Notes: generated by a model not told the origin, from the letters alone. DNA of 64,000 nucleotides from Eubacteriales bacterium (GCA_045586845.1 JAZNBB010000022.1:10382-74381); one strand, 5' to 3'. Positions 30,218-46,334 are shown, counted from the first letter of the stretch. Numbers and translations: made by a program.

Positions 30218-30313
30218 TTTTTGAAAAATACAAAAATTTCGTAAAAAGCGAAACCAAATTCGTTTTTTTCTGTCTGTATGAGTGAACCCCCGAAAAGACA
30301 GGAGGACGCGTAT

Positions 30314-31879
30314 ATGACGAAAATGAGAAAAACTATCACGGGCATAGCGGCGGGCGCAATGGCATTTTTGATGCTTTGCGTCTTTGCAGCTGTGCCTGTT
30401 TCCGCTAACTCAGCACAATCCTATTGGGAGGGTGTGAGCGGGTCAGAAGTGCTGACCACGGACGGAGAATGTCCCTTGGTGGTCGAGCACGAAACGCTGA
30501 CCTTTGATATTGCGGATTTTCCAAGTCCACACGGTAGTATCGAGGCGTACGGTGCCAGCGTGACGGCAGAATATACCTTTTACAATCCAAGTGATATGAC
30601 GGTGATGGCAAATCTGCTGTTTCCGTTTGGGGTCAACCCCTATTATGCCGAGCATTACGATCCTGAAAAGGGAGAATACATCGCGCCCGACAATGTTTCC
30701 AAATACGGTGCGCAGGTGGACGGAACGGCGGTAGAGACGGTCGTGCGCCACAGCTATTGGGATGGTTCGCTCTACAATTTCAACCCTGCCAAAGAAATGG
30801 CAACGCTGTATGACGATTACCGCACCGATGCCTTTTTGACCTACGAGTTGCCTGTGCACGTATACACGTACCGTGCCGAAGGCGTTGATCATCAAGCCTA
30901 CCGTGCCGCAGACGCCGCTACATATATCGGGGATCTGCCCGACGATACGCGCGTGATGCTGCAGAATGCGACCAGGTGGTTCTCCGGAGATGAGGGTGGC
31001 TGGCTTGGCACGTCTGCCTCGTATTCCGAGATCGTGTTTTACGTGTTTGGCAGGGATATTGGCGAGGTGCAGTGGACGGTCTTTGAAAACGGAGGTTTGG
31101 AGCAAGAGATCGAGGGCAGCGTCAAGCTCATTGATAAGCAAAGCACCACCTTTGGCTCTCTTGCCATGCAATTCTACGATCCCGCATCGGGCGTGGCGGC
31201 GCACGACTGGTTCAACGCCGTTGTTGCGCAGCTTGAGGGCTCAGCAAGATTGGAGGGCGGTCTGTATAGCAGCATGTGTGCAAATTGGGATATTTCAAAG
31301 GATTTGCTGCAATGGTATGAGTACAAGATCACGCTCGCGCCGGGCAAGCGGCTGACCAATACGGTCACAGCCCCGCTGTATCCGAACATTGACGGGGATT
31401 TTGTGCCGCATGTTTATTCGTACGAGTATTTTCTCACACCCGCCTCGCTTTGGAAAGAGTTTGGTACGTTGGATATCTATATCAACACGCCGTATTTCAT
31501 GATCAACGAGCGAAAAGGGGAGTACAGCATTGCACCCGACGAATGGGTAAGGACAGATGCCGGCTATGAGCTGCATCTGGACGGATTGCCCACAGAAGAT
31601 CTTGTGTTTTCTCTGTGTGAGTCGGAAGCACCCAAAAGAGAAATGACCGCATGGACGTGGCTTGGCATCTTTTTGATAGCGATTGTGATCGTGTTTGGTT
31701 TGGCGGGCTTGATCGCGGTAGCTCTGTTGATACTTTGCGCTCTGATGCCCATTGTCGGCGTGATCATAGCGGGGTTGTTAGCTGTGATCAGCATCGTGGG
31801 CTTGATCGTTTGGATTGTGCAAAAGCGAAAAAAAGCAAGGCAGGCTCAGGACACAGCAGATCATGAAAAAAACGAATGA
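30314..31879 (+). CDS. Hypothetical secreted protein with a C-terminal multi-TM anchor
   Basis: RBS aggagg 9 nt before the ATG at 30314. Signal peptide ending VPVSA-NS, a ~440-aa extracytoplasmic region with no recognised motif, a ~60-aa hydrophobic C-terminal stretch (2-3 TM helices), then KRKKARQ. Confidence 0.65.
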   Translation: MTKMRKTITGIAAGAMAFLMLCVFAAVPVSANSAQSYWEGVSGSEVLTTDGECPLVVEHETLTFDIADFPSPHGSIEAYGASVTAEYTFYNPSDMTVMANLLFPFGVNPYYAEHYDPEKGEYIAPDNVSKYGAQVDGTAVETVVRHSYWDGSLYNFNPAKEMATLYDDYRTDAFLTYELPVHVYTYRAEGVDHQAYRAADAATYIGDLPDDTRVMLQNATRWFSGDEGGWLGTSASYSEIVFYVFGRDIGEVQWTVFENGGLEQEIEGSVKLIDKQSTTFGSLAMQFYDPASGVAAHDWFNAVVAQLEGSARLEGGLYSSMCANWDISKDLLQWYEYKITLAPGKRLTNTVTAPLYPNIDGDFVPHVYSYEYFLTPASLWKEFGTLDIYINTPYFMINERKGEYSIAPDEWVRTDAGYELHLDGLPTEDLVFSLCESEAPKREMTAWTWLGIFLIAIVIVFGLAGLIAVALLILCALMPIVGVIIAGLLAVISIVGLIVWIVQKRKKARQAQDTADHEKNE

Positions 31880-31954: not shown

Positions 31955-31999
31955 ATAATGGATTATTTTCCAAGTACCAATGAAAAGAGGAGACTGACT

Positions 32000-33472
32000 A
32001 TGAAAAAGCTGACCATATGGCTGTTGCTGGCGGGTATGCTGCTTTCTGCTCTTGCAGGCTGCGCGCAAGAATCCGACAAGCAAGACAGTGGAACAACTGA
32101 CACACCCGGGCAGGAAGAGGATTATTGGATGAATCCCGACCTCAAGCCGGATAAGGTGGATCTGAAACTCGAGGGAACCGAAGTAGTGATCTTATCGTAC
32201 AACCAGTACGATATCGGTCCCGAAGAGAATTCCTCCGACCCGCTTGAGGATGCTGTTTACAGACGTGACGACAAACTGCAGAATGAGCTTGGTATCAAGT
32301 TCAACAACACATATCAACCTGATTTTTCGCTGATCTCGGAGGCCGTCAAGAACGACATGGCTGCAGGTACGGGCGAGTATCACATTGTATATCAACACAT
32401 GATCGATGCTTCTCGTGCGCTGGCACCGGGGGGGTATTTGTACAACCTGACCGACCTTGATTATGTGGATTTTGACAGAGAGTGGTGGGATCAGGACTGC
32501 AAAAAGGGCTTTATGATCGGCGATAGCATGATGATGGTGTGCGGCGATCTTTTGCCCTCCAGTATGTTGATCACCGCATCGGTGCTGTTCAATAAGAATT
32601 TGTTTGAGACAAACGGCTGGGAGTTTCCCTATGACGATGCAAGAGACGGAAATTGGACCTTGGATGATATGCTGGAGCTGACCAAGGATCAGACCAAGGA
32701 TCTCAACGGTGACGGCTCGATGATTTATTCCGATGACTTTTTCGGTGTGACCTCATGGGCTGCGGATGCCGATTTCAATTTGTTCTACGGCGCCGGTGCC
32801 ACCATGTTTTCCTATGATGAGAACCATTTGCCCGTGTTTGATCCCGACACCGACAGACTGCAGAAGATCTACGATAAGGTCTATGAACTGCTGATCACAC
32901 AAAACGCCTTCCACGTGATATGGGCACAGTATGAAAAGGATCCGAGTATGTATACTGCCACCATTGACGTGTTCCGTGATGGCAGAGCGCTGTTCTTCCC
33001 GACCTACCTGTCCGTGACTACTTTTTTGCGCGATATGGTGGACGATTACGGTATTCTGCCCAATCCCAAATACGATGAATCTCAGGAGGATTATCTGGGC
33101 TTTGTAAACGGCAGTGCCAGTATGGCTTGCGTGCCCAATAGCCTGAGCGAAGAGAATCTCGCAATTGCGGGTTATATGCTGGAGGCACTGACATCCTCGT
33201 CCTATCATATGACGACTGATACGCTGTACGAGGTGGTCGCCAAGTCCAAGAATGCGCGTGACCCCGAATCTGCTGAAATGGTGGATATCATCATTCGTCA
33301 TAAGGTATTTGACTTTGGCTATTCTCATTTTTCAAATGGGGATTGGCCCTGTTGCAACGTCGCGCAGACAGCGCTGCAGAGCAATCAAACCTCTATTGTC
33401 AGGGATATTACAAACTCTGCAAAGAAAACCCGAAAAGAAGTTGATAGGATCGTTGAGGCTTACGGCTACTAA
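32000..33472 (+). CDS. Solute-binding-protein-fold lipoprotein, paralog 1 (large LplA/YtcQ-like family-1 SBP)
   Basis: RBS aagaggag. Signal peptide with lipobox LAGC. Shared blocks SSDPLEDAVYRR, GTGEYH, WWDQDCK, GDLLPS, DLNGDG, DYGILPNPKYDE, VNGSAS, IIRHKVFDFGY. Confidence 0.7.
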   Translation: MKKLTIWLLLAGMLLSALAGCAQESDKQDSGTTDTPGQEEDYWMNPDLKPDKVDLKLEGTEVVILSYNQYDIGPEENSSDPLEDAVYRRDDKLQNELGIKFNNTYQPDFSLISEAVKNDMAAGTGEYHIVYQHMIDASRALAPGGYLYNLTDLDYVDFDREWWDQDCKKGFMIGDSMMMVCGDLLPSSMLITASVLFNKNLFETNGWEFPYDDARDGNWTLDDMLELTKDQTKDLNGDGSMIYSDDFFGVTSWAADADFNLFYGAGATMFSYDENHLPVFDPDTDRLQKIYDKVYELLITQNAFHVIWAQYEKDPSMYTATIDVFRDGRALFFPTYLSVTTFLRDMVDDYGILPNPKYDESQEDYLGFVNGSASMACVPNSLSEENLAIAGYMLEALTSSSYHMTTDTLYEVVAKSKNARDPESAEMVDIIIRHKVFDFGYSHFSNGDWPCCNVAQTALQSNQTSIVRDITNSAKKTRKEVDRIVEAYGY

Positions 33473-33515
33473 GAGACACAGCCTGCATTTTGTTGAATTT
33501 TGATGGGAGATTATT

Positions 33516-35108
33516 ATGCAAGGAATTTACCGAAGTTCAGCTGTTGTTTTGATTTTTGTTTTACTTTTTTCCATGGTTTCCTGCGACTTTGGCAGCCTTG
33601 GCGGCGGCGGATTGGTCGGGGAGCTGTTAGGCTCTGCACAGGATATTTGGGATCCCGATGATCAAGGCAATGGGTCTGATGAGTATTTGACGGATATTGA
33701 ACAGACGTTTGGTCCTTCCGAGGAAGAGCCGACGCAGGACGTTACGGTCGAAGTTGATCATTGGGTCAGCCCCTATCTGCCCGATGTGGATCTTATGGGC
33801 ACCGAGATCAATATTCTCCTTGATTACGCAGATGATGTAGGATTGGAAGAGGCATCCTCTGATCCCCTCGAGGATGCCATCTACAGAAGAAACATCATGA
33901 TCGAGGAGCAGTACGGTGTTGAACTGAATTGGCATATCGAGCAGGATTACATACAAGCGAGAGAGAGGATCAAAAATGATTTTTCCAATGGTGCAGGGGA
34001 GTATCACTTCGCTTTTCATCACATGGTGGACAGCACAGCCAATCTGGCGCTGAGCGGTTGTTTGGTCAACCTGCTCAACGTAGATTATGTTGATTTCAGC
34101 CAAGCATGGTGGGATCAGGACAACTTGAACGGCTTCAGAGTCGGGGATCAGATGTTAATGGCAAGCGGAGATCTTTTACCCTCTACTACGCTGTTGTCTT
34201 CCGCGATCTTCTTTAACAAGAATTTGTTTGACGAGCGTTCTTGGGAATATCCGTACAGTGATGCGGCATCGGGCAGTTGGACCCTGGACGATATGCTGAT
34301 GTTGACCGAGGATCAGGCAATGGATCTCAACGGTGACGGAAAAATGAATTACGCAGAGGATTTCTACGGTTTTGTCGCCTGGTCTTTGGATTGCGATTAC
34401 GGTTTGGCAGGCGGTGCGGGAATGACCATGTTTGAATATGATGGCGATCATCTGCCCGTATACAATGCAAATACCGATAAACTGCAATCGATTTATGATA
34501 AGATTTACAGCCTGGTCGCTTCTCGGGATACATTTCACGTGACTATTGATGACTATCTACTGAATGATGATATGCCTCAAGAACCGTGCAACGTGTTTGC
34601 ATCCGGCAGAGCCTTGTTCTTTGCAAGTTATTTGCGTGAAACGGAAAACCTCCGTTTTAAGATGGAGGACGATTACGGTATTTTGCCTATGCCCAAGTAT
34701 GATGAAGCGCAAGAGCAGTACCGTACCTTTATCAACGGTTCTGCGTCTGTTTTGATCATTCCCAAAAGCGTGAATGATGAACAACTGGACGTTGCAGGTT
34801 ATATGATTGAAGTATTGGCATCCTCCTCTTATTACAATGTCACTAAGACAGCCTTGTATCAAAAACTCGAAAAGTCCCGTACTTTACAGGACTCTGAGAT
34901 GGCAAGGATGGTTGATCTGATCATTCGTCATAAGGTGTTTGATTTCGGCTACACGCACTTTTATATGGACAGCATGGCTTGCGCGACTGTCGTTCAGACC
35001 TCTTTGAACAGTGATAGCCCCTCCATCATCAAGAGCATCACCAAGGACGAACTGAGAACCCTGAAAACTTTGAAGAAGATCTACGAGACTTACGGATACG
35101 ATTACTGA
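33516..35108 (+). CDS. Solute-binding-protein-fold lipoprotein, paralog 2
   Basis: 43 nt after paralog 1 with no terminator, so probably co-transcribed. Lipobox-like MVSC. Carries the same conserved blocks (SSDPLEDAIYRR, GEYH, WWDQD, GDLLPS, DLNGDG, DYGILPMPKYDE, IIRHKVFDFGY). Confidence 0.7.
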   Translation: MQGIYRSSAVVLIFVLLFSMVSCDFGSLGGGGLVGELLGSAQDIWDPDDQGNGSDEYLTDIEQTFGPSEEEPTQDVTVEVDHWVSPYLPDVDLMGTEINILLDYADDVGLEEASSDPLEDAIYRRNIMIEEQYGVELNWHIEQDYIQARERIKNDFSNGAGEYHFAFHHMVDSTANLALSGCLVNLLNVDYVDFSQAWWDQDNLNGFRVGDQMLMASGDLLPSTTLLSSAIFFNKNLFDERSWEYPYSDAASGSWTLDDMLMLTEDQAMDLNGDGKMNYAEDFYGFVAWSLDCDYGLAGGAGMTMFEYDGDHLPVYNANTDKLQSIYDKIYSLVASRDTFHVTIDDYLLNDDMPQEPCNVFASGRALFFASYLRETENLRFKMEDDYGILPMPKYDEAQEQYRTFINGSASVLIIPKSVNDEQLDVAGYMIEVLASSSYYNVTKTALYQKLEKSRTLQDSEMARMVDLIIRHKVFDFGYTHFYMDSMACATVVQTSLNSDSPSIIKSITKDELRTLKTLKKIYETYGYDY

Positions 35109-35119
35109 TGATATACAGA

Positions 35120-35156
35120 GAAGGGGCTGCCCGATCGGGAAGTCCCTTCATCTTTT
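35120..35156 (+). terminator. Probable terminator after paralog 2
   Basis: GAAGGG (35120-35125) pairs with CCCTTC (35144-35149), enclosing an inner CCC/GGG stem. Followed by ATCTTTT. Confidence 0.5.
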
Positions 35157-35209
35157 GTGGAGGTATCGTATTGGTGCAACATGCACAAAAACAGTATGAT
35201 TTTTTCGAC

Positions 35210-35238
35210 TTGACAAACGTTGGGAAATGTGTTACAAT
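35210..35238 (+). promoter_or_regulatory. sigma-A promoter of paralog 3
   Basis: TTGACA (35210-35215), 17-nt spacer, extended -10 TGtTACAAT (35230-35238). Confidence 0.65.
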
Positions 35239-35280
35239 AAGCATGTATGAAAATTTTTATATGAAAGAAGGAACATACTT

Positions 35281-36744
35281 ATGTACAAAAAGCTCTTAGT
35301 TTTGCTTTTGTGCGGCGTGATGCTGATCGGTATGCTTGCCTCTTGTGTTGATGCTAATCCGGATGAGGGCTCTTCCGAATCAAACGAGGAAGAAACCAAC
35401 TGGGTCAGCCCCGACCTTGAGTTCAGCGATGCTTACAAGGGCCAGGAATTGGTCATTCTCACACAGAATGACACCGATATCGGCCCCGAGGAAAACTCCT
35501 CCGACCCGCTTGAGGACGCTGTTTACAGAAGAAACGACATGATCGAAAGCTACTATGGCGTTGAAATCAATGGCGTTTTGGTCGAGAGTTATGAAGAACT
35601 CGGCGAAACCGTCAAGAGAGACGTGACCGCGGGTACCGGTGAGTACCACATCGTTTACCAGCACATGGTAAACAGTGCTACCACCCTTGCACAGGGCGGC
35701 AACCTCTACAAGCTCAATGAGCTTGAGCACGTCAACTTCGACCAGCCTTGGTGGGACCAGGACTGCAAGAACGGCTTTATGATCGGCGACAGCATGCTGC
35801 TCGTATGCGGCGACCTGCTGCCCAGCACCATGATGATCACGGCTGCAGTTATCTTTAACAAGGACCTGTTTGACGAGTACGGCATCGAGTACCCCTACGA
35901 TGATGCAAGAGAAGGCACATGGACCATCGACGATATGCTTGAGATCACCAAGGATCAGACCAAGGATCTCAACGGTGACGGTGGTGTGGATTACCAGAAC
36001 GACTTTTATGGTCTTGTCGGTTGGTCGTTGGACTGCGACTATAACTTCTTCTTTGGCGCAGGCTGCACGCTGTTCAGCTATGACGAGGAACACCTGCCCG
36101 TTTATGATGCCGACACCGACAGATTGCAGACCGTTTACGATAAGATCTATAAGCTGATCGTAACCCAGCAATCTTTCCACGTAACCGTTAACGAGTACCT
36201 TGCAAACGCAGGTATGGTCTCCGAGCCCAGCAACGTATTCAAGGCAGGCAGAGCATTGATGTATGCAAGCTACCTGTCCGGTGCAGTCGGTCTGCGTGAT
36301 ATGGAGAAGGATTACGGTATTCTGCCCCAGCCCAAGTACGATGAAACGCAGGAAGATTACCTGAGCTTTGTAAACGGTTCCGCATCGGTTGTAGTCGTTC
36401 CCAAGAGCCTTACCACAGAGAATCTGGATATGGCAGGCTATATGATGGAGGTTCTGGCTTCTTCCTCTTATTACACGGTAACCGATACCCTGTATGAAAA
36501 GGTAGCAAAGTCCAAGACCGCACGTGACCCCGAATCCGCAGAGATGGTGGATATCATCATCCGTCACAAGGTATTCGATTTCGGTTATACCCACTTCCAT
36601 AATGATGGCTTGGCTTGCGCGAGCATCATTCAGACCGCTTTGAACAGCAAGAGCCCCTCTATTGTCAAGACCATTACCCAGGACAAAACTCGTACCGAGA
36701 AAGCTTTGAAGAAGGTCTACGAAGCCTACGGCTACGAATATTGA
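35281..36744 (+). CDS. Solute-binding-protein-fold lipoprotein, paralog 3
   Basis: Lipobox LASC. Closest to paralog 1, sharing an identical 35-nt stretch (35947-35981 = 32681-32715). Uses more G/C-ending codons than the other paralogs. Confidence 0.7.
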   Translation: MYKKLLVLLLCGVMLIGMLASCVDANPDEGSSESNEEETNWVSPDLEFSDAYKGQELVILTQNDTDIGPEENSSDPLEDAVYRRNDMIESYYGVEINGVLVESYEELGETVKRDVTAGTGEYHIVYQHMVNSATTLAQGGNLYKLNELEHVNFDQPWWDQDCKNGFMIGDSMLLVCGDLLPSTMMITAAVIFNKDLFDEYGIEYPYDDAREGTWTIDDMLEITKDQTKDLNGDGGVDYQNDFYGLVGWSLDCDYNFFFGAGCTLFSYDEEHLPVYDADTDRLQTVYDKIYKLIVTQQSFHVTVNEYLANAGMVSEPSNVFKAGRALMYASYLSGAVGLRDMEKDYGILPQPKYDETQEDYLSFVNGSASVVVVPKSLTTENLDMAGYMMEVLASSSYYTVTDTLYEKVAKSKTARDPESAEMVDIIIRHKVFDFGYTHFHNDGLACASIIQTALNSKSPSIVKTITQDKTRTEKALKKVYEAYGYEY

Positions 36745-36764
36745 TCTCTGATCAAAAAATATTT

Positions 36765-36792
36765 AGGGCTGCCCACATGGGCAGCCCTTTTT
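36765..36792 (+). terminator. Rho-independent terminator after paralog 3
   Basis: AGGGCTGCCC, loop ACAT, GGGCAGCCCT, followed by TTTT. Confidence 0.8.
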
Positions 36793-36814
36793 GTGCTTGC
36801 GCTTGACCAAAGTA

Positions 36815-36844
36815 TTGACAAAGTGTCCACATATGTGCTAAAAT
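36815..36844 (+). promoter_or_regulatory. sigma-A promoter of paralog 4
   Basis: TTGACA (36815-36820), 18-nt spacer, extended -10 TGcTAAAAT (36836-36844). Confidence 0.6.
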
Positions 36845-36876
36845 AAAAACAGAAGTCCCGAAGGGAGGATCATATC

Positions 36877-38412
36877 ATGAAAAAGAGAATATTTGCTGCG
36901 TTGGTGTGCTTGGCATTGGTCTGCTCCTTTGCCGCTTGCGATATGGAGTTTGGCGGTCTTGTGGGTGAACTGTTGGGCGATTTGAATCTGCCCACTGATA
37001 TCGAAGGCAGACCTCTGCCCGATGAAATACTGTCCGATTGGGCGGAGAGCGGAACTATGCCTGCCGAAACGTGGTGGGATGAAGAGACTGTTTACGATGA
37101 AACGGTTGCCCCCAATGACAGACCGGATTTTCAGTATTCATACCGCTTGTACGAGAATCAGACCTTGACCGTGCTGGGTCAGAATACGATCGATCTTGGA
37201 CTTGATGAGTTCTCGGAAAATGCTTTGGAGAGCAGTAGCTATCAGCGTAATCAGCGCATGGAGAAAGTTTTTGGTATTCATGTGGAAACTCTGATGGCGG
37301 AGAGTGGCGAACTTGAAGCGCTTGTCAAAAACGATGTTGTTTCCGGAACGAGAGATTTTGATGTTGTTATGGGCGATATGGCAGACACAGGCGCCTCGCT
37401 TGCACAAAGCAGTGTATTGCTCAATCTGTACGACCTGCCGTATCTGGATCTTTCAACCACGAGCTGGGATGCAAGCGTCAATGAAGGCTTGGCAATTGGC
37501 AACTACCTGCCCATGGCAACGGGCGTTGTTACGCCCACTGCCTATTTGCATACATCTTTGATCTTAAACAATAAGCCAATAGCCGATAATTGCGGAATTG
37601 ACGTCTATGATTACGTGCGGACCGGTGGCTGGACGATTGATAAGATGAACGCCATGGCAGAGCTTTGTTACACGGATCTGAACGGAGATGCCCGTATCGA
37701 TCAAGAAGATGTCTTGGGCTTAGTTGCTACATATGACTGTGCAAACGCATTTGCAGTTGCAACCGATACCATGCTGATTGCGAAAGATGCGGATAATATG
37801 CCTGTGCTCAATACGGATGGAATGGACCGTTTGGCGGCTGCATATGAAAGCGTCTATAACCTGCTGTTTGCTAACGGTGTGTTGTATTTTTCCTCGATGC
37901 AAGATGCGCCGGGATCGGGTGCTGCAAAATCTGTTTTTGAGCAAGGCAACACGATGTTTTATGCTACCACCGTTCAAGATGCGATGCAGGTCAATGATAT
38001 GAATGTACAGATGGGCATTCTGCCTTTCCCGAAGCTGAACGAAGAACAGGAAAGCTATCGTTCTTACGTCAATTGTAGTTCAACCGCCGTGATGGTTCCC
38101 ATTGATGTTGATAAGGATTTTGTAGGATATGTGCTGGAGGCACTGGTGTACGCAACCGACGATGCGTACACGATCACCGTATCGAACAGACTTGTCAGGA
38201 GTGAACAGGATCAGGAAATGCTGGACCTTGTGCTGGAAGGCAAGACCCTGGATTTTGGCAGCAACTATCTGTTGACTGCTACGGGCGGGACGGTGCAGTG
38301 CTTCAAAATTGCCCTTGAGCAGAAGAATCCCACGATCATGAGCTTGTATAAGCAGTACCAAAAGGTGTTGAGCAAGTATTTGGAACAGATGGTTGACTCT
38401 ATTCCGAGCTGA
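36877..38412 (+). CDS. Solute-binding-protein-fold lipoprotein, divergent paralog 4
   Basis: Lipobox FAAC. Same length class and collinear weaker matches (DLNGDA, MGILPFPK, shared GGLVGELLG after the lipobox Cys). RBS gggagg. Confidence 0.6.
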   Translation: MKKRIFAALVCLALVCSFAACDMEFGGLVGELLGDLNLPTDIEGRPLPDEILSDWAESGTMPAETWWDEETVYDETVAPNDRPDFQYSYRLYENQTLTVLGQNTIDLGLDEFSENALESSSYQRNQRMEKVFGIHVETLMAESGELEALVKNDVVSGTRDFDVVMGDMADTGASLAQSSVLLNLYDLPYLDLSTTSWDASVNEGLAIGNYLPMATGVVTPTAYLHTSLILNNKPIADNCGIDVYDYVRTGGWTIDKMNAMAELCYTDLNGDARIDQEDVLGLVATYDCANAFAVATDTMLIAKDADNMPVLNTDGMDRLAAAYESVYNLLFANGVLYFSSMQDAPGSGAAKSVFEQGNTMFYATTVQDAMQVNDMNVQMGILPFPKLNEEQESYRSYVNCSSTAVMVPIDVDKDFVGYVLEALVYATDDAYTITVSNRLVRSEQDQEMLDLVLEGKTLDFGSNYLLTATGGTVQCFKIALEQKNPTIMSLYKQYQKVLSKYLEQMVDSIPS

Positions 38413-38422
38413 AATAAAATGA

Positions 38423-38460
38423 CAAAGGGCTGCTCGCTTGTCGAGCAGCCCTTTGTTTTA
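38423..38460 (+). terminator. Rho-independent terminator after paralog 4
   Basis: 14-bp stem CAAAGGGCTGCTCG (38423-38436) pairs with CGAGCAGCCCTTTG (38442-38455). Followed by TTTTA. Confidence 0.75.
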
Positions 38461-38534
38461 TCTGCATTTGATGTGACGAATATCACTTTCTGTGCATATT
38501 GTGGCAGAATTTACAATTCCGGGGTGACAAAGTA

Positions 38535-38563
38535 TTTACAATATGACAAAAATATGGTATAAT
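38535..38563 (+). promoter_or_regulatory. sigma-A promoter of the CotH/RCC1 gene
   Basis: TTTACA (38535-38540), 17-nt spacer, extended -10 TGgTATAAT (38555-38563). Confidence 0.6.
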
Positions 38564-38624
38564 TAGAGATCGATAAAGAAGATGATAGCTTATGATATAA
38601 ATTCGTTTTGTAAGGAGGATATCC

Positions 38625-41600
38625 ATGAAACACAGAATATCCCTCAAAGCCGTTTTTTCGCTGCTTTTAGCACTGATTTTGCTGATGGGTATGCTGGCTG
38701 CATGTCGGTCCGATAAGCCATCTGACAGCACCGCCGAGGATGATACACAGGATCCCGAACAAACCACCGCGCCCGACCAAGAGGAGATTACACAGCCGGG
38801 AGGAGAGGAGCAAACCACGGGTGACGAGCTCCTGCAGCCCGATGATCCAACTTACGAGGTCGCCAAGAATTTCAAGGACGTGCTGATCAGTGCAGTCTAC
38901 GGAACGGGGCAAAATAAAGATGCTGCGGTAGGGCATGGTTTTATTCAGTTATATAACACGGGTACTGAGAGCGTGTCTTTGTCGGATGCTGCGCTTTATT
39001 ACCGCGAGGATGCCAATGATGACTACAGACAATTTGCGTTTGCAGATGATGCAAGCATAGCTCCGGGCGGATATTATTTGATCCGTATGCAGGCAGCAAG
39101 AGAAAAGAACGGCGAGGCGTATGACGAAAGCTTTGCTGTACTTGCTGTTGAGTCGTTTGATGCCGAATGGGCAGTCATCCTTGACAATAAGGATATTCAA
39201 CTTTCACTTGCCCCCGCAGGGCAGGAGGTAAGCCGGGATACCGCCGTGGAAGAAATCAACGGTACCGTCTCGTATTTTGTTGCCGCCGAGCTTGGCTATA
39301 GCAGTCATTTTGCCGTGGATAATATGTCCAAGAGCAAGGTGGCGGTGCGCACCGCACTCAAGCATTACAGTGGCTTCCACAAGGTCAATCTGAATGAATC
39401 CACGACCGCGCAGTTGGAAAAGGTTTGCCCCAAGAGCGGGGCGGGCGACAATACTGTGGTCGGCTCACGCGTCAGCGAGGTACTGTTCTCGGCTGATGCG
39501 GGCATTTATGCGCAGGGCTTTTGGCTGGAATTGCGTGCCAAGGACGGATATAAGATATATTACACCACTGATGGTTCCGATCCCAAGGTGCACGGTACGG
39601 AATATACCGCTTCCATTCCTTTGGCAGATTCCTCTTCGGTTGCCCCGGGCGCAACCATCAAGGGTGCGGCTTCTGCTATGGGCAGCGATTACGGCGCAAG
39701 AAGCGATACGTTGCCGGGAGGCTATGTGATCAAGGCATATGCCACCAACGGTACGGACTCTACCGACGTCTTTACCAATACGTACTTTATTTCCGATACC
39801 TTTTACGAATATGGTGTGACTATGATGTCACTTTCCATGGATAAGAATCTGATCTATGGAAATGAGGGCTTCTACAACCACTATTACGGTACAGGAGACC
39901 AGAAAAATCAGCGACAGACGGGAATGCTTGAGGTTTTTTCGGCGGACGGTCAGCGTCACGGCAGCTCTTACGTGGAGCTTGCCATCAGCGGACACGGCTC
40001 CTCGGGCTGGGCAATGAAGTCGATGCGCGTGTATTATAAGAGCGCTAACAACACCGCCGTGGGTACGGACGGAGATCTTAATTACGATCTGTTTGGCGGC
40101 TACGCCCGCGATGATAACGGCTATGCCATCACCGATTTCTCGCGTCTTTTATTGCGTAACTCGGGCAACGACTGTATGGATTCCTTTATCCGTGACGCGT
40201 ATATGCAGCGCGTTTGCAAGGATATGGACGTGTATACCATGGCATACGTACCTGTGTTGATGTTTATCAACGGAGAGTTCTGGGGTGTTTACAACGCGCG
40301 TGAGCGTTACAGTCCCGAATACGTGGAATCCCACACAGGAGCAGATAAGGCAAATATTGCTATCATAGAGAGCGATTACGACGGATTGGTACTTGAGGGC
40401 AACGGAAATGCGCCCTTTATCCCCATGGAGTCTACGCAAGCGGATGCCGATGAGTTTAATGCTATCGTAAAATATATCCGTACGCATGATCTGTCGGTCG
40501 AGGAGCATTATCAGTACGTAGCGGAGCGTATTGATATCAATTCCTTTATGGATATGTACGTTGCGCGCCTGTTCTTCAATGCACGCGACTGGCCCGAAAA
40601 CAATATCAAGGTGTTTAAAAACCGTGTGGAGGGTGATCTCTCGGGTACGGATACCAAGTGGTATTTTACGCTGTTGGATATGGATATGGGTATCGCCATG
40701 TATCCCGAGGGGCACTGGGCGGATACCTCGGAAAAAGCCAACTTTTTTGGTTGGATCGACTCAACCGGTACCGTCGTAGGTACCATTATGCATGGACTGT
40801 GCAAGAACCAAGGCTTCAAGCAGACATTCATCTCTCGCTTTGCGTATGTGGTGGATCAGATCCTGACGCCCGAAAATCTGAAAGCCGAGCTTGATACAAT
40901 GGTGGCAGAGCGCGAGCCGCTGGTCGAGCTGCAGAAAATGCGCTGGGGTGCATCCGAGTCGCAGTACCGCACGTCGATCGATAATATGTATAAGTTTATC
41001 CAAGGCAGAGAGCAGTACGTCATCCCCATGCTGTGCTCTTATTTCGGCATTTCACCCGAGGATCTGCAGATCGGCACCGAAAAAAAGGTGGTGGTCAGCT
41101 TCAATTCCGAGCGCGCGAGCGTCACTTTTAACGGCGAAGCCGTGTCCGAGTCGGGCACAGAATACGTATTTGAGGTCGATCCGAACAAACAAAGTGTGAC
41201 TTTTGAGATTGCTGCAACTGCCAAAGAGGGGTACAGTATTGCTTCGATTATGTTTATGCCTTCTGTGGGCGAGGTCCAAACGGTGCAAGGCGATCAGGCA
41301 GAGTTTACCGTTACGTCGTCCGGTACGGTAGTGGTCAACACCAAATCCAATGGCGCGCAGTCTCCCGTGGCAGGCGTACAGAGCGGGATTACTGCAAGCG
41401 CACATTCATCGTATTATCTGACCGAGACGGGTGACCTGTATGCCTGGGGAATGAACAAAAATGGTATTTTGGGCATTCCGGGTAACAGCAGCGTATCAGT
41501 GCCCACGCTGGTGGCGTCTGGGGTTGCCAAGGTGGAGGTTTGCCACAGCAACGATGCTGAGAATAATAACAATGATACCATGATGGCGTATCTGACATTG

Positions 41601-42416
41601 GACGGCGAGCTTTACACAGTTGGCTGCAACAGTGCAGGACAGCTTGGCAGAAACGGCACGACAACTGATGACCGAGTCGGACTTGTGAAGTTTGATAAAA
41701 AGATCAAGGACATCAGCGTCGGGCATGACCACTTGCTGGTGCTTGATGAGGAAGGTGTACTATGGGGTGTTGGTTCCAATACTTACGGGCAACTTGGCAA
41801 AAGCAACGATGGCGGTACTACCACTAAATTTCAGATGGTAGCAAGTGGTGTCAAGCTGATCGCGGCGGGACGCAGAAATACGTTCTATACCGACGCAAAT
41901 AACACTTGTTACGTGCTTGGTGATAACCGCTGGCAGAAGTTTGGAAAGGATGCGGAAAAGTATAGCACACCGCATCAGCTGCTCAAGAACGTGACGTATA
42001 TGTCCACGGGAGAGCATCAGGTCGTGATGGTGACTGCAAACGGTGATTTGTATTATGCAGGTTGGCGTACCCTTAATGGCTGGGGACAAGGTCAGGGCGC
42101 AGGCGGCGCGGTCAAGCTGACAAGCAGCGTCAAAAAGGCGGTGTTGCATCATAGCAATATGCTGATTCTCAAGACCGATGGCTCGGTTTGGGGCTATGGA
42201 AACAATATGGGCGGTGCCATGGGCAGCGTCAGCGCAACCTCGGGTACGCCGGGCAAGATCATTTCAAGCGGCGTAGCGGATATTGCGTCCGGCTACCAGT
42301 TCAGTATGTTCTTGCATCAGGATGGCAGCATCAAGGTTCAGGGTGACAATGCGCACGGTCAGGCAGGTAATGGCAAGACCGGCGGCAGTGCCAATATGGC
42401 GCAGGCACTCTTCTAA
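38625..42416 (+). CDS. Large lipoprotein: lamin-tail domain + CotH atypical kinase domain + RCC1-like beta-propeller
   Basis: RBS aaggagg and lipobox LAAC. LTD-like segment (VLISAVYGTG...GFIQLYNTGTESVSLSDAALYY). IYYTTDGSDP module. CotH-like core (LLLRNSGNDCMDSFIRDAYM...VLMFINGEFWGVYNARERY...ARDWPENNIKVFKN...YFTLLDMDMG). Seven C-terminal repeats with the xxGxNxxGQLG pattern. Confidence 0.75.
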   Translation: MKHRISLKAVFSLLLALILLMGMLAACRSDKPSDSTAEDDTQDPEQTTAPDQEEITQPGGEEQTTGDELLQPDDPTYEVAKNFKDVLISAVYGTGQNKDAAVGHGFIQLYNTGTESVSLSDAALYYREDANDDYRQFAFADDASIAPGGYYLIRMQAAREKNGEAYDESFAVLAVESFDAEWAVILDNKDIQLSLAPAGQEVSRDTAVEEINGTVSYFVAAELGYSSHFAVDNMSKSKVAVRTALKHYSGFHKVNLNESTTAQLEKVCPKSGAGDNTVVGSRVSEVLFSADAGIYAQGFWLELRAKDGYKIYYTTDGSDPKVHGTEYTASIPLADSSSVAPGATIKGAASAMGSDYGARSDTLPGGYVIKAYATNGTDSTDVFTNTYFISDTFYEYGVTMMSLSMDKNLIYGNEGFYNHYYGTGDQKNQRQTGMLEVFSADGQRHGSSYVELAISGHGSSGWAMKSMRVYYKSANNTAVGTDGDLNYDLFGGYARDDNGYAITDFSRLLLRNSGNDCMDSFIRDAYMQRVCKDMDVYTMAYVPVLMFINGEFWGVYNARERYSPEYVESHTGADKANIAIIESDYDGLVLEGNGNAPFIPMESTQADADEFNAIVKYIRTHDLSVEEHYQYVAERIDINSFMDMYVARLFFNARDWPENNIKVFKNRVEGDLSGTDTKWYFTLLDMDMGIAMYPEGHWADTSEKANFFGWIDSTGTVVGTIMHGLCKNQGFKQTFISRFAYVVDQILTPENLKAELDTMVAEREPLVELQKMRWGASESQYRTSIDNMYKFIQGREQYVIPMLCSYFGISPEDLQIGTEKKVVVSFNSERASVTFNGEAVSESGTEYVFEVDPNKQSVTFEIAATAKEGYSIASIMFMPSVGEVQTVQGDQAEFTVTSSGTVVVNTKSNGAQSPVAGVQSGITASAHSSYYLTETGDLYAWGMNKNGILGIPGNSSVSVPTLVASGVAKVEVCHSNDAENNNNDTMMAYLTLDGELYTVGCNSAGQLGRNGTTTDDRVGLVKFDKKIKDISVGHDHLLVLDEEGVLWGVGSNTYGQLGKSNDGGTTTKFQMVASGVKLIAAGRRNTFYTDANNTCYVLGDNRWQKFGKDAEKYSTPHQLLKNVTYMSTGEHQVVMVTANGDLYYAGWRTLNGWGQGQGAGGAVKLTSSVKKAVLHHSNMLILKTDGSVWGYGNNMGGAMGSVSATSGTPGKIISSGVADIASGYQFSMFLHQDGSIKVQGDNAHGQAGNGKTGGSANMAQALF

Positions 42417-42420
42417 ATCA

Positions 42421-42449
42421 AAAAATCCTTGCAATCGCAAGGATTTTTT
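42421..42449. terminator. Symmetric (bidirectional-type) terminator after the CotH/RCC1 gene
   Basis: AAAAATCCTTGC, loop AATC, GCAAGGATTTTT. The A-run and T-run flank an 8-bp GC-containing stem. Confidence 0.8.
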
Positions 42450-42592: not shown

Positions 42593-43051
42593 ATGTCTAA
42601 ATTTCAGGAAAAGATTTATCAATTCATGTACGGTCGCTACGGCACGGACAGGCTGAACCGTGTGCTGTCGGTCGCATCGTTGGTTATTTTGGCGGTGTCG
42701 CTCCCCGTGTCATGGATATGGGGCAGAACCTTGCCCGGCATCATCGTATCGCTCGTTTTGTATACCGGGTCGCTTGGTATCTGCATCTGGGCTACCGCGC
42801 GCACCTTTTCGAGAAAGATCTGCAAAAGGCAGGCGGAAAACGCTAAATGGGTAGCGTTTGAATACAAGCTGCGCTGCCTGTTCCGCAGACACAACGGTAA
42901 TAAAGACACCGATACGCACGTATTCCGCGACTGCCCCAAGTGTAAGGCGACTCTGCGCCTACCACGGCAGCAGGGAAAGCATACCGTGCGCTGTCCGCGC
43001 TGCGCAAAGACCTTCACCGTTCGCGTCAGAGCACCGAAAAAGAGAAAATAA
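42593..43051 (+). CDS. Small membrane protein with a C-terminal zinc ribbon
   Basis: 152 aa. Two predicted TM helices, then CPKC...(15 aa)...CPRC and a basic tail KKRK. Confidence 0.6.
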   Translation: MSKFQEKIYQFMYGRYGTDRLNRVLSVASLVILAVSLPVSWIWGRTLPGIIVSLVLYTGSLGICIWATARTFSRKICKRQAENAKWVAFEYKLRCLFRRHNGNKDTDTHVFRDCPKCKATLRLPRQQGKHTVRCPRCAKTFTVRVRAPKKRK

Positions 43052-43090: not shown

Positions 43091-43219
43091 ATATAAAGAC
43101 CGCATCCGTCGGTCATTTTTCTTTGCTTTTTTCCCGGGAAGCGTGTATAAGATCACACCTACAGCTTGTCATACCCACGGACAAGACCGCATATATTGCT
43201 GTGAAAGGTGGTGAGCAGT

Positions 43220-44152
43220 ATGCGGAGTGTGATGGTCAACAGGGCAGAGGACACGGGCGTGGAGCGACGCACATATCTGCCGCCGAGTGTGATCAGGATG
43301 CTGCCCGAGCGCCTTGTCTCCGAGCTGTATGCGGGGCATTTGCCCGAGCATATCGAGGAGATAAGGCTGCATACCGGGCGGTGTGCAAGCGTAGTGGCGG
43401 GTGGGCGCAATATTCTTTTGCGCACGGTGCTCAGTGCCCAGGAAATGACCGCAACACTGACGCGTATGTGCGGCGGGTCGCTGTATTCGCATGCTCCTAC
43501 CATTGCAGAGGGGTATCTGACGCTGGACGGTGGTGTGCGCGTGGGCGTATGCGGCAGGGCTGCTTGCGAGCAGGGCGAGGTGATCGGGGTGTATGACGTA
43601 TCCGGGCTTTGCATCCGTATTCCCGCGCATTTTGCGGTAAGCGGCAGGGAGATCTGCAATCTCATGCAGAAATACCGCTACACCAAGGGCGTGCTGATTT
43701 ATTCACCGCCCGGCGTCGGCAAAACAACGCTGCTTCGCGGCGTTGCCACATCACTTGCCTCCGGGGAGGACCCGAGGCGCGTGGTGGTGATCGATACGCG
43801 CGGCGAGATGCCGTTTTTGCAGACCGGCGTATCACTTTGCCTGGATGTGTTGGTGGGGTATCCGCGTTACCTTGGGGTGGAGATAGCTTGCCGCACCATG
43901 AATGCACAGGTCATGATCTGCGATGAGATCGGGGATTATCAAGAGGCACTCTCTCTTGCATCGGTGCAGAATTGCGGCGTTCCGTTGGTGGCGACTGCGC
44001 ACGCGTCGTCCGTTGAGGAGCTGCTGTGCCGCACGGGGCTGCGGCTGTTGCATGATTGCAAAATGTTTGGCGCATACGTGGGCATTTCACGCCGCGAGGG
44101 TGGTTTTTCCTATCACGTAACCGATTGGGAGAGCGCGGATGCTTGCCTTTAA
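43220..44152 (+). CDS. spoIIIAA: Stage III sporulation protein AA (ATPase)
   Basis: Walker A SPPGVGKTTLLR, Walker B-like VMICDEIG. First gene of an eight-gene spoIIIA-like operon. The ATG at 43220 follows gaaaggtgg. Confidence 0.85.
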   Translation: MRSVMVNRAEDTGVERRTYLPPSVIRMLPERLVSELYAGHLPEHIEEIRLHTGRCASVVAGGRNILLRTVLSAQEMTATLTRMCGGSLYSHAPTIAEGYLTLDGGVRVGVCGRAACEQGEVIGVYDVSGLCIRIPAHFAVSGREICNLMQKYRYTKGVLIYSPPGVGKTTLLRGVATSLASGEDPRRVVVIDTRGEMPFLQTGVSLCLDVLVGYPRYLGVEIACRTMNAQVMICDEIGDYQEALSLASVQNCGVPLVATAHASSVEELLCRTGLRLLHDCKMFGAYVGISRREGGFSYHVTDWESADACL

Positions 44153-44615
44153 GCTTGTAGGGGCTTTTTTGGTGCTGGCAAGCGGTACGGGACTTGCCAT
44201 CGGTGCTGCTAGATACGAGCGAGTGCGGCTGCAGGTGCACGACGCTCTGATCTCACTGATTTTTTTTATCAAAGGGCGTATCGATTGCTATGCTATGCCT
44301 GTAGAGCAGATCATGCTAGGGATGGATAAGGGGATTTTGGCTGATTGCAGATGCCCGGGACAGGTAGATTCGATCGAGGCACTGCTACCGTATGTCAAAG
44401 CTTACCTTGACCCCGAGACCTATCGCGTGCTGCAAAGCTTTGGTACCGGGCTGGGCGGCGGTTTTCGTGACGAGCAGATCAAGCGGTGCGATTATTATAT
44501 TGAGCTTTTGCGTGAAAAGCGTATGCAGCTGGAAGCGGAGTTGCCCGCCAGAGCAAAAACGAACGGAGCGATATGGATCTTGTGCGCCGCGGGCGCGGTG
44601 ATCCTTCTTTGGTAG
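44139..44615 (+). CDS. spoIIIAB: Stage III sporulation protein AB
   Basis: 158 aa with an N-terminal TM helix. Position and size match SpoIIIAB. Overlaps spoIIIAA by 14 nt. Confidence 0.8.
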   Translation: MLAFKLVGAFLVLASGTGLAIGAARYERVRLQVHDALISLIFFIKGRIDCYAMPVEQIMLGMDKGILADCRCPGQVDSIEALLPYVKAYLDPETYRVLQSFGTGLGGGFRDEQIKRCDYYIELLREKRMQLEAELPARAKTNGAIWILCAAGAVILLW

Positions 44616-44617
44616 AT

Positions 44618-44812
44618 ATGGAAGTTGGATTGATCTTAAAGGTGGCAGGCGTAGGGCTTTTGGTCTCGGTTGCCACACAGATCTTGAATAAATCGGGCAG
44701 GGATGAGCAGGCAACGCTGGTGACGATCGCAGGCATTGTTGTGGTGCTTTTGATGCTGGTAGAGCAGATCGGCGAGCTTTTCTCGCTGGTGTACGCTACC
44801 TTTGGCTTTTGA
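44618..44812 (+). CDS. spoIIIAC: Stage III sporulation protein AC
   Basis: 64-aa two-TM protein (ILKVAGVGLLVSVATQILNKSGRDEQA...), typical of SpoIIIAC. Confidence 0.8.
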   Translation: MEVGLILKVAGVGLLVSVATQILNKSGRDEQATLVTIAGIVVVLLMLVEQIGELFSLVYATFGF

Positions 44813-44820
44813 GCGTGGAT

Positions 44821-45198
44821 ATGCTCAGGATATGCGGCATTGCCATGCTGTGCCTTGCCGCCGTATGGATACTCAAGCAATACAAAGCCGAGATGGTGCT
44901 GCCTGTGCGTGCCGCGGGCACAGTGCTTATTTTTTTTATGGTTCTGAGTGCAGCACAGCCCATCATAGAAATGATAGGCAGCTTGTCTGAGCAAAGCCTG
45001 CCTGCCGAGCATGGGGAGATATTGCTCTCGGGGCTGGGGATCACGCTGCTCTCCGCCCTTGGCGCGGGTATCTGCCGTGATTTTGGTGAAGCGGGATTGG
45101 CGACCGCCTTGGAAAGCGCAGGTAAAGTCGCGGTGGTACTGCAGGCACTGCCGCTGATCACGGAAATATTGGGCATGACAAAGGAGCTTTTATCGTGA
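44821..45198 (+). CDS. spoIIIAD: Stage III sporulation protein AD
   Basis: ~125-aa polytopic membrane protein in the AD position. The start could also be the TTG at 44809 or the GTG at 44815. Confidence 0.75.
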   Translation: MLRICGIAMLCLAAVWILKQYKAEMVLPVRAAGTVLIFFMVLSAAQPIIEMIGSLSEQSLPAEHGEILLSGLGITLLSALGAGICRDFGEAGLATALESAGKVAVVLQALPLITEILGMTKELLS

Positions 45199-46334
45199 AA
45201 AAAAGGTTGTGGGGTACACTTTTTGTGCTGGCGGCAGCCGCTTTTCTGTGTACACACGCGTCAGCAGAGCAAAGCAGTGCTGATTACAGCGCGTTGCCCG
45301 AGCAATACGTGGCACTGGAGGACTGCATTCCCGAAAGACTTGCCGCCATATTGCCCGAAGGTTTATTTTCCTCAGATGTGACAGAGGTACGCGTAGCTCT
45401 TGGACAGCTGACCTCATTTTCGGGGCTTTTGGGGCTGCTGTTACAGCTTTACGGGCTGCACCTTGGCGAGAGCGGTACATTGCTTGCTTCGATCTGCGGC
45501 TTAATTTTGCTGTGCGGTATGATGCGCTCGATCGGCCGTGCGCAAAGTTTGCCTTGGGCAAGCCTTGCACCGCGGCTTTGCTTATTTGGTGCGGTGGCAG
45601 GGGCGGGATACGCCGCTGTGAATACCATGGTGGAGTATTTCGGTACGCTACGCACGCTGATGGGGGGACTTATGCCCTTGATGAGTGCCATGTATGTCAT
45701 GGGTGGCAATATAACGCGTGCCACGGTGGGCAATGCCACATTGTCTGTGGGTCTGAACGTGTGCGGCAGCGTATGTGCTAAAGTCGCACCACCATTGTTT
45801 GGCTCTTGCATGGCAATGACATTGCCCTCGATGCTCGAATCGGGCGTAGATCTTTCCAAACTTTCAGCGTTTATCAAAAAGACTTACACTGTGATACTTG
45901 GCTTACTGACGTTGTTGCTGACACTTTGCCTTTCTGCGCAAAATCTGCTCGCCTCAAGAGCAGATAGTCTTGCGATGCGCAGCGGACGCTATGCCATCGG
46001 GCAAATGATCCCGGTGGTGGGGGGGGCGCTTTCAGGATCGCTTGATACACTTGCCGCAAGCGTTGGTATGCTGCGAGGACTTGCGGGTGGGTGTGGCGTG
46101 ATATTATTGTTTCTGACTTGCCTGCCGGTACTCTTGCAAATGCTTGCACTGCGAACGCTGTTGGATCTTGGCTCGGGACTTGCGCACCTGCTTGGCTGTG
46201 CGCCCGAGAGTGCGGTGCTTTCGGAGGCGAGTAGTCTGTTTGGCTACATGGCGGCGGCAGTTGCCATGTGCACGGCGGTATTTATCATTGCCATGGGGGC
46301 GTTTGCAGCGTGCGCAGCAGCTTGGGTGACGTGA
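45195..46334 (+). CDS. spoIIIAE: Stage III sporulation protein AE
   Basis: 379 aa with a signal peptide and multiple TM helices. GTG start 8 nt after aaggag, GTGA overlap with AD. Confidence 0.8.
   Translation: MKKRLWGTLFVLAAAAFLCTHASAEQSSADYSALPEQYVALEDCIPERLAAILPEGLFSSDVTEVRVALGQLTSFSGLLGLLLQLYGLHLGESGTLLASICGLILLCGMMRSIGRAQSLPWASLAPRLCLFGAVAGAGYAAVNTMVEYFGTLRTLMGGLMPLMSAMYVMGGNITRATVGNATLSVGLNVCGSVCAKVAPPLFGSCMAMTLPSMLESGVDLSKLSAFIKKTYTVILGLLTLLLTLCLSAQNLLASRADSLAMRSGRYAIGQMIPVVGGALSGSLDTLAASVGMLRGLAGGCGVILLFLTCLPVLLQMLALRTLLDLGSGLAHLLGCAPESAVLSEASSLFGYMAAAVAMCTAVFIIAMGAFAACAAAWVT

Follow-up and report, generated by a model that had tools for sequence, protein, structure and literature searches.

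We suggest that a gene in a 64,000-nucleotide stretch of DNA from a Eubacteriales bacterium (GCA_045586845.1 JAZNBB010000022.1:10382-74381; hereafter the window, with positions counted from its first letter) encodes a lipid-tethered ecto-enzyme of the CotH family, displayed on the surface of vegetative cells, whose C-terminal RCC1-like propeller would recruit the target. The open reading frame (ORF; 38625-42416, plus strand) runs for 1263 codons plus TAA without interruption. Its translation reads, from the N-terminus, as a lipoprotein signal, an acidic linker, a lamin-tail domain (LTD), a CHB_HEX_C/Fn3_assoc sandwich, a CotH core, an immunoglobulin (Ig)-like spacer and a seven-blade propeller. 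We hold this architecture and the surface location of the protein with high confidence; the functional reading is the one we favour, at a likelihood somewhat better than even. All coordinates given for features of this gene are on the plus strand unless stated otherwise.

A modular protein, predicted to be a surface lipoprotein

A ribosome-binding site (AAGGAGGA, 38612..38619) lies 5 nucleotides (nt) 5' of the ATG and is kept in the alignment of orthologous upstream regions. The N-terminus, MKHRISLKAVFSLLLALILLMGMLAAC, consists of a basic n-region, then a hydrophobic core and then a canonical lipobox, L-A-A-C, ending in Cys27 (signal peptide, amino acids (aa) 1-27, 38625..38705, read from the translation); these three elements, with [LVI][ASTVI][GAS]C as the lipobox pattern, were our definition of a lipoprotein. 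Cys27 is found in at least 90% of 46 aligned homologues, and lipobox-like N-termini recur among 80 related loci. The linker that follows (aa 28-82, 38706..38870) is acidic, rich in Pro, Thr and Gln by composition of the translation, and poorly conserved in the family alignment; we presume it to be a tether that spans the cell wall.

The lamin-tail domain, an Ig-like beta-sandwich at aa 83-197 (38871..39215), was recognised by Pfam (aa 83-188, 35.9 bits, gathering cut-off 34.3), by model strands at aa 86-197 and by Foldseek, and other family members give LTD scores like that of the window protein. It leads through a beta-rich connecting region (aa 198-291, 39216..39497), confidently modelled as strands with a short helix and free of Pfam matches in the scan of the window protein, into a CHB_HEX_C_1/Fn3_assoc beta-sandwich at aa 292-389 (39498..39791; model strands at aa 293-389). 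This module contains the motif IYYTTDGSDP and is matched by CHB_HEX_C_1 at aa 292-338 (E=1e-8) and by Fn3_assoc at aa 302-387 (E=3.3e-10). The CotH atypical-kinase domain occupies aa 395-818 (39807..41078), as judged by Pfam, Foldseek and collinearity with Bacillus CotH in hhalign and hmmsearch. Next come an Ig-like beta-sandwich spacer (aa 819-908, 41079..41348), which has 7 or 8 strands in both predicted structures and again no Pfam match in the scan of the window protein, and the seven-blade RCC1-like beta-propeller (aa 918-1263, 41376..42413), identified by Pfam, by sequence matches in the PDB, by its predicted structure and by superposition on UVR8. No dockerin family appears among the Pfam matches of the window protein at E up to 0.1, i.e. 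it is not a dockerin protein of the CseP type, and an NCBIfam scan of it returned nothing informative.

Structures were predicted with AlphaFold2 from the 46-sequence family alignment. The model of aa 65-915 has a mean predicted local distance difference test score (pLDDT) of 89.1 and a predicted template modelling (TM) score of 0.82; its top PDB matches in Foldseek are the Bacillus cereus CotH kinase structures 5jd9 and 5jda (E=3.4e-10, probability 1.0, TM score 0.77 by target length), and its N-terminal sandwich resembles the lamin tails 3jt0, 3gef and 1ifr (probability 1.0, TM scores 0.5-0.7). In the model the CotH domain starts at about aa 395-399, ahead of the Pfam envelope (aa 497). A first-pass annotation, made by a model from the sequence alone, had proposed this order of domains, from the signal of a lipoprotein through the CotH core to a propeller of seven blades, and all of it is borne out. 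Its module boundaries agree with ours within ~30 residues, its start of the CotH core at 39.8 kb lies nearer to the structural start than does that of Pfam, and what it described as a beta-rich spacer corresponds to the Ig-like sandwich of aa 819-908 in the AlphaFold2 model.

Active-site residues of the CotH core

The Pfam CotH family (PF08757) matches aa 497-799 with an E value of 8.5e-37 and 127.8 bits, against a cut-off of 23.8, over profile positions 26-322 of 322. Neither a phmmer search of PDB sequences (E up to 10) that took only the CotH region as query nor one that used the family profile reached a CotH structure; the link of the core to 5jd9 was found by fold comparison only.

For comparison we aligned 24 Bacillus-type CotH proteins, with only database sequences entering the final alignments. 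A reconstructed Bacillus subtilis CotH sequence, in which the positions of D228 and D251 fit and which is 89% identical to the database CotH of B. vallismortis, was kept out of them. Sequence identity to Bacillus CotH is ~13-18%; global hhalign alignments were meaningless, and local hhalign with a low maximum-accuracy (MAC) threshold and HMMER with its filters off were used instead. HH-suite and HMMER agree on a register that places R-D655-W-P-E-N659-N660 on Bacillus Y-D228-G-F-V-H-N233 and F-T-L-L-D685-M-D687 on Bacillus F-E-V-I-P-W-D251. The putative catalytic loop D655-W-P-E-N-N660, aligned to D228...N233 of B. subtilis CotH, lies at 40587..40604, and the putative metal-binding motif D685-M-D687, with D687 aligned to D251, at 40677..40685. 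Replacement of either aspartate in B. subtilis CotH (D228Q or D251A) inactivates the enzyme (PMC7821199).

D655, N659, N660, K662, D685 and D687 are invariant in all 46 of 46 family members, which range from 45 to 83% identity to the query. In the N-lobe, G458, S459 and S466 are invariant in the family and K465 nearly so, and in the Bacillus proteins G51, S52, K60 and S61 are all invariant; likewise, D516, S520 and R523 are invariant in the family, as are the Bacillus counterparts D86, S88 and R91. The core that the first pass had called CotH is accordingly seen, in alignment to the B. subtilis protein, to have the catalytic and metal residues in place (D655, N660, D687). This residue pattern fits an active enzyme. 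Because D655, N660 and D687, aligned to D228, N233 and D251, are invariant in 46 members, a pseudokinase, which had been raised as an option, appears unlikely, and we put the chance that the domain is catalytically active at a little above one half.

The RCC1-like propeller

From aa 918 on, Pfam matches with E values of 8e-20 to 4.7e-44 were obtained to WD40_RLD (PF25390; 151.6 bits, cut-off 150), RCC1 (PF00415; 71.6 bits) and RCC1_2 (PF13540; 89.7 bits). Sequence matches in the PDB were UVR8, HERC2 and RPGR, with E values down to 1e-22 for UVR8 and HERC2. The AlphaFold2 model of aa 800-1263 (pLDDT 92.5) shows the Ig-like sandwich of aa 819-908 and then 28 beta-strands (aa 921-1260), arranged as seven blades of four, and the propeller superposes on the whole 368-residue seven-blade UVR8 over 369 columns (TM score 0.80, root-mean-square deviation 2.8). 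UVR8, the RCC1-like domains (RLDs) of HERC2, RPGR, RCC1 and bacterial BLIP-II have this fold and repeat motif in common with the window propeller, which differs from them in being extracytoplasmic, bacterial and fused to a kinase-type domain.

Blades 4-5 carry the family-specific invariant motifs GDNRWxK, AGWR, GRRN and GEHQ in place of the canonical ones. In a sequence alignment with UVR8, the invariant G-R1083-R1084-N-T falls on a GWRHT motif (W233/R234) and G-E1130-H1131-Q1132 on a second one (W285/R286/H287); these GWRHT motifs lie on the functional top face of UVR8. The charged face made up of H1034/D1035/H1036, R1083/R1084 and E1130/H1131/Q1132 is probably a conserved ligand face. Guanine-nucleotide exchange of the Ran type is not expected of an extracytoplasmic bacterial protein, nor is it required of the wider RLD fold family.

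Family distribution and natural paralogue pairs

A word-indexed search returned 370 clusters at 90% identity; among the best 120 of the 370, a single one covers less than 92% of the query, and the Pfam string is the same in nearly all. When each GTDB species was represented by one genome, 115 loci were confirmed; 80 of them were kept, and ~70 of the 80 reach into the propeller. An exhaustive HMMER search against 1.84 billion cluster representatives (50% identity) turned up ~14 clusters with CotH, spacer and propeller in collinear order. The architecture is common, not rare, which weakens the first-pass interpretation on this point. Sequences came almost entirely from metagenome-assembled genomes (MAGs) of Clostridia, Eubacteriales, Oscillospiraceae or 'Ruminococcus', plus Clostridium sp. 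CAG:448, and the habitats of the MAGs were the guts of yak, sheep, goat, deer, buffalo, cattle and horse.

Database labels of the relatives go no further than 'CotH kinase family protein' or 'RCC1 family protein'. The window protein is already in public databases under a generic name. LTD-CotH proteins that act outside the cell are known, as are RCC1 modules that occur separately in extracellular proteins. In the literature searched, no CotH-RCC1 fusion and no lipoprotein CotH has been described, in agreement with the first-pass view of the fusion.

Several genomes contain two or three copies of the family. Propeller-less paralogues of 797-955 aa retain LTD, CHB_HEX_C/Fn3_assoc and CotH, with a lipobox in most N-termini, and often stand in tandem, directly after the propeller-bearing copy. 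What the family conserves is thus the lipoprotein core LTD-CHB-CotH, to which a propeller may or may not be added at the C-terminus. At seven distant loci (L042, L043, L044, L053, L057, L063 and L078; e.g. L043:11841-14540) a propeller-less CotH gene encoding 882-899 aa directly follows the propeller-bearing copy; these second copies have LTD, CHB_HEX_C/Fn3_assoc and CotH where scanned, and most have a lipobox. The tandems at distant loci are natural paralogue pairs that differ by the propeller.

Comparison with known CotH proteins

Spore-coat CotH of Bacillus (B. subtilis; B. cereus 5jd9/5jda) belongs to the same PF08757 family and has the same fold, with the catalytic Asp/Asn and the metal Asp in common. 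Its homologues are, however, 357-412 aa long with CotH as the sole domain, whereas the window protein is a 1263-aa lipoprotein with five extra modules. Bacillus CotH is not known to carry a signal peptide and works in the mother cell, where CotB and CotG are its substrates. No SKR-repeat neighbours (a cotB/cotG-type context) were found beside the window gene, which does not qualify as a spore-coat orthologue of the Bacillus type.

The closest parallels are among cellulosomal and secreted proteins. In Clostridium thermocellum, CseP (Cthe_0044) is a CotH-dockerin protein, Cthe_0239 has the order LTD-LTD-Fn3-CotH-dockerin, and Cthe_0258 is a separate (RCC1)5-dockerin protein (PMC6083626). Ruminiclostridium cellulolyticum has the cellulosomal CotH homologue Ccel_1101 (PMC12774918), Ruminococcus albus 7 has a cellulose-induced CotH-CBM37 protein with a predicted twin-arginine translocation (Tat) signal (PMC4300822), and anaerobic fungi have CotH-dockerin proteins acquired from bacteria (PMC11291939; PMC8665504). 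As in the window protein, an extracellular core is combined there with LTD/Fn3-type sandwiches and a C-terminal targeting module, in a plant-fibre or herbivore-gut ecology; the window protein differs in its predicted anchor, an N-terminal lipid instead of a dockerin or CBM37, and in its C-terminal module, an RCC1 propeller. In Bacteroides, proteins diversified by diversity-generating retroelements (DGRs) bear CotH active regions near carbohydrate-binding motifs and a C-terminal ligand-binding module (PMC11601372). These are likewise large gut surface proteins with an embedded CotH, but they exceed 2000 aa, belong to Bacteroidota and are diversified by a DGR at the C-terminus; neither a DGR nor a diversified region is evident here.

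CotH is distantly related to the Fam20C kinases (PMC7821199). Fam20C acts on the extracytoplasmic side, as would hold here, but works in the Golgi lumen with imported ATP. To our knowledge, there is no equivalent ATP supply at the Gram-positive surface. PDB sequence, family-profile and Foldseek searches gave no direct sequence or fold match to Fam20C.

A putative ecto-enzyme with a recruiting propeller

According to the reading we favour, the protein would be exported through Sec and lipidated at Cys27, with the acidic Pro/Thr linker holding it off the membrane; both lipidation and surface exposure are predicted. The catalytic heart would be the CotH-type domain, which has an atypical kinase fold akin to that of Fam20C and in which D655, N660 and D687 and the adjoining D685 are intact. 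This domain may move phosphate from a nucleotide, for which extracellular ATP with Mg or Mn is the simplest candidate, onto an external substrate. A surface or secreted protein with Ser/Thr residues could be the acceptor, or possibly the hydroxyl of a glycan. LTD, CHB_HEX_C/Fn3_assoc, the Ig spacer and the propeller would be non-catalytic binding modules, the propeller being an optional add-on that may capture the target, probably via its conserved charged face. The gene product would then fall among the extracellular proteins of fibre-degrading anaerobes that pair CotH with a targeting module, as a variant that is anchored as a lipoprotein and bears a propeller.

Several points weigh against this. 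The hhalign probability between the family and the Bacillus CotH profile is just 35-38%, a weak value, and the N-lobe register was in part obtained by matching motifs by eye. The proposed ligand face comes from the UVR8 sequence alignment and not from model coordinates, the LTD score is marginal, just above the Pfam cut-off, and the sigma-A-type promoter described below is predicted from a consensus match and its conservation. Kinase activity throughout the family is a prediction from sequence and modelled fold, and ATP supply outside a Gram-positive cell is uncertain. That a kinase outside the cell is puzzling, as the first pass had remarked, is a real difficulty, acknowledged also for cellulosomal CotH (PMC12774918; PMC12484212), and as of 2025 extracellular CotH proteins were without a defined function (PMC12774918). 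The more specific proposal of a true ecto-kinase, which would use an extracellular nucleotide or another donor on a plant-wall or host glycoprotein, a glycan or a surface protein of another microbe captured by the propeller, is put forward as tentative, at rather less than an even chance.

Alternatively, the protein might be a non-catalytic adhesin or binding protein, with the CotH fold serving as a ligand surface and the sandwiches and propeller adding avidity for plant, host or microbial surfaces. Every accessory module is indeed a binding fold typical of extracellular proteins, a non-enzymatic role would sidestep the problem of extracellular ATP, and binding of CotH proteins to the plant cell wall has been speculated upon in the literature (PMC8665504; PMC11291939). 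There is also a precedent in CotH2 and CotH3 of Mucorales, which lie on the cell exterior and are treated as surface invasins with a proposed ligand-binding role, although these are eukaryotic, with a single CotH domain and neither LTD nor RCC1 modules. Mucorales CotH2 and CotH3 carry a glycosylphosphatidylinositol (GPI) lipid anchor and bind host GRP78. At the same time, the invariance or near-invariance of D655, N659, N660, K662, D685 and D687, and of the N-lobe Gly, Ser and Lys motifs, over 45-83% identity is hard to explain without catalysis or at least binding of nucleotide and metal, and we regard a purely adhesive role as doubtful.

Transcription unit and the case for a sporulation role

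The CotH gene is predicted to be a monocistronic transcription unit of its own. A GC-rich hairpin terminator found in a terminator scan (38422..38456, no strand assigned; 15 pairs, 9 of them GC) closes the upstream gene, which encodes a solute-binding protein (SBP)-like lipoprotein, and is followed by a sigma-A-type promoter at 38535..38563, composed of TTTACA, a 17-nt spacer and the extended -10 element TGgTATAAT (11 of 12 consensus positions plus the TG). An intrinsic terminator, AAAAAATCCTTGC-aatc-GCAAGGATTTTTT (42420..42449), forms an inverted repeat 4 nt past the stop codon. Because a strong terminator and a separate promoter intervene, the CotH gene would be transcriptionally isolated from the SBP genes. 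Across the orthologous upstream regions (n=13) TTTACA is invariant and the -10 hexamer is identical in 12 of 13 (TACAAT in L019), with the flanks drifting; we consider this conservation good comparative evidence for a promoter of the housekeeping sigma type. About 55 bp upstream of the promoter lies a CRP/FNR-like palindrome, TGTGAcgaataTCACt (38472..38487), a possible regulator site, which is kept as TGTGACAAATATCACA in most close-clade orthologous loci. Its conservation hints at regulated expression, although the pattern (TGTGA-N6-TCACA) has one match in the window against ~2 expected by chance, i.e. it is not enriched.

Downstream, the spoIIIA operon starts within one small gene of the CotH gene, extending from 43208-46334 on, with AA, AB and AE recognised by Pfam and AC, AD and AH seen in the orthologous locus L001; because this operon is present, the host is taken to be an endospore-forming Clostridium. 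A different explanation builds on this context: the protein could be a CotH paralogue in the forespore or mother-cell membrane, facing the intermembrane or cortex space and modifying components of the spore envelope. The characterised bacterial CotH is a spore-coat kinase, the gene sits one small gene upstream of spoIIIAA-AH in the window and in the close clade, in a spore-former, and a SpoVAC neighbour occurs at one distant locus. Against it stand the gene's own terminators and conserved sigma-A-type extended -10, with no recognisable promoter for sigma-E, -K, -F or -G, and the loss of spoIIIA adjacency in members at 33-50% identity. Moreover, bona fide CotH is a single domain of ~360 aa, whereas the accessory modules here are like those of secreted glycan-active and cellulosomal proteins. 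The first pass had suggested action in the mother cell or on the forespore surface; given a sigma-A-type promoter and spoIIIA adjacency confined to the close clade, this finds little support, and we judge a sporulation role to be improbable.

The small gene between the CotH gene and spoIIIAA (42593-43051) encodes a protein of 152 aa whose N-terminal half is hydrophobic and whose C-terminal part is basic and contains a zinc ribbon, CPKC...CPRC (weak IBR_1 match). This zinc-ribbon membrane protein gene has its own TGnTATAAT promoter, and its position is kept in 12 close-clade loci.

Gene neighbourhood

Directly upstream of the CotH gene and on the same strand lie four tandem SBP-like lipoprotein paralogues (31958-38412) with 30-58% mutual identity. 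They are 504, 530, 487 and 511 aa long, with a GC content of 0.47-0.49 against 0.53-0.55 in the flanks, and arrays of 5-7 copies occur in related MAGs (L001). No gene for an ABC permease or ATPase was found among the scanned flanking ORFs, and the block looks like an inserted island that separates the housekeeping genes from spoIIIA and codes for orphan surface lipoproteins. It is preceded by a 533-aa ORF (30278-31879) with a signal-peptide-like N-terminus and no Pfam match; farther upstream are the housekeeping genes infC, dprA, topA, rnc, smc, ftsY and a nadD-like gene.

The SBP/spoIIIA arrangement is kept in the close clade (at least 72% identity) and replaced in members at 33-50% identity, where the neighbours include GH2, a lipase, V-ATPase, a SpoVAC-like gene with a 913-aa protein, and two-component systems. 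SBP neighbours are present at 17 of 86 loci, nearly all of them at 72% identity or above, and are missing from most members at 33-50% identity. The first-pass annotation had named the neighbouring SBP-fold proteins as candidate substrates; four of the five upstream ORFs are indeed SBP paralogues, but the fifth, of 533 aa, is unrelated to them, and the synteny is limited to the close clade. By analogy with CotH and CotB/CotG, the protein might be a kinase devoted to these lipoproteins, with their bodies or their acidic tethers, rich in Ser/Thr, as its targets, since the four paralogues stand immediately upstream on the same strand, without transporter genes, in an arrangement kept in the close clade, and since the substrates of B. 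subtilis CotH are reportedly found among neighbouring genes (Nguyen et al., 2016). However, the association is found mainly in the close clade, where inheritance of the gene order is the simplest explanation, and with a strong terminator and a separate promoter between the SBP genes and the CotH gene we consider this very unlikely.

All-against-all clustering of the flanking ORFs from 86 loci revealed no partner gene (substrate, transporter or donor-generating enzyme) common to the whole family. The recurrent 916-aa and 248-aa neighbours have no Pfam match. The ~916-aa protein, the sole neighbour that recurs beyond the close clade, is encoded in the flanks at 11 loci (L005, L006, L022, L026, L041, L056, L061, L062, L073, L075 and L081) and directly upstream of the family gene in L005, L006 and L041 (e.g. 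L041:4751-7501); it has no signal peptide and, judged by eye, looks like a glycoside hydrolase (N-terminus PVPFWSWNEKLN...). Some CotH genes lie beside genes for VTC-type polyphosphate polymerases and DUF4956 proteins, a possible donor supply; no VTC-type or DUF4956-like gene stood out among the recurrent neighbours, as judged by eye and from a few Pfam scans only.

The window also contains three long antisense ORFs on the minus strand, at 17770-20058 (762 aa), 35380-36600 (406 aa) and 504-1865 (453 aa), which oppose topA, an SBP gene and the first ORF of the window, respectively, the 762-aa one spanning all of topA; they are probably artefacts of codon bias.

Implications

Extracellular CotH proteins are abundant in the fibre-degrading systems of bacteria and fungi, and a kinase outside the cell is hard to square with ATP supply. 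Another extracellular CotH will come as no surprise to the specialist. What our analysis adds is that a CotH core with an intact-looking catalytic site also occurs in predicted membrane-bound lipoproteins, with or without a propeller, in more than 100 uncultured species of the herbivore gut. In the recurring design, a CotH core is joined to an interchangeable targeting module, be it a dockerin, CBM37, a DGR-diversified lectin-like domain or an RCC1 propeller. The modular pattern, the strict conservation of the active site and the paralogue pairs make the family well suited to comparative work aimed at the substrate and phosphate donor that extracellular CotH enzymes use. Should activity not be confirmed, the result would be a correct but unremarkable annotation of a multidomain surface protein; should it be confirmed, surface phosphorylation would be established for gut Firmicutes. 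If the tentative proposal of a true ecto-kinase holds, extracellular phosphorylation would be widespread in the Clostridia of the herbivore gut, and the family would offer a way into the role of cellulosomal and secreted CotH proteins, a question now 20 years old.

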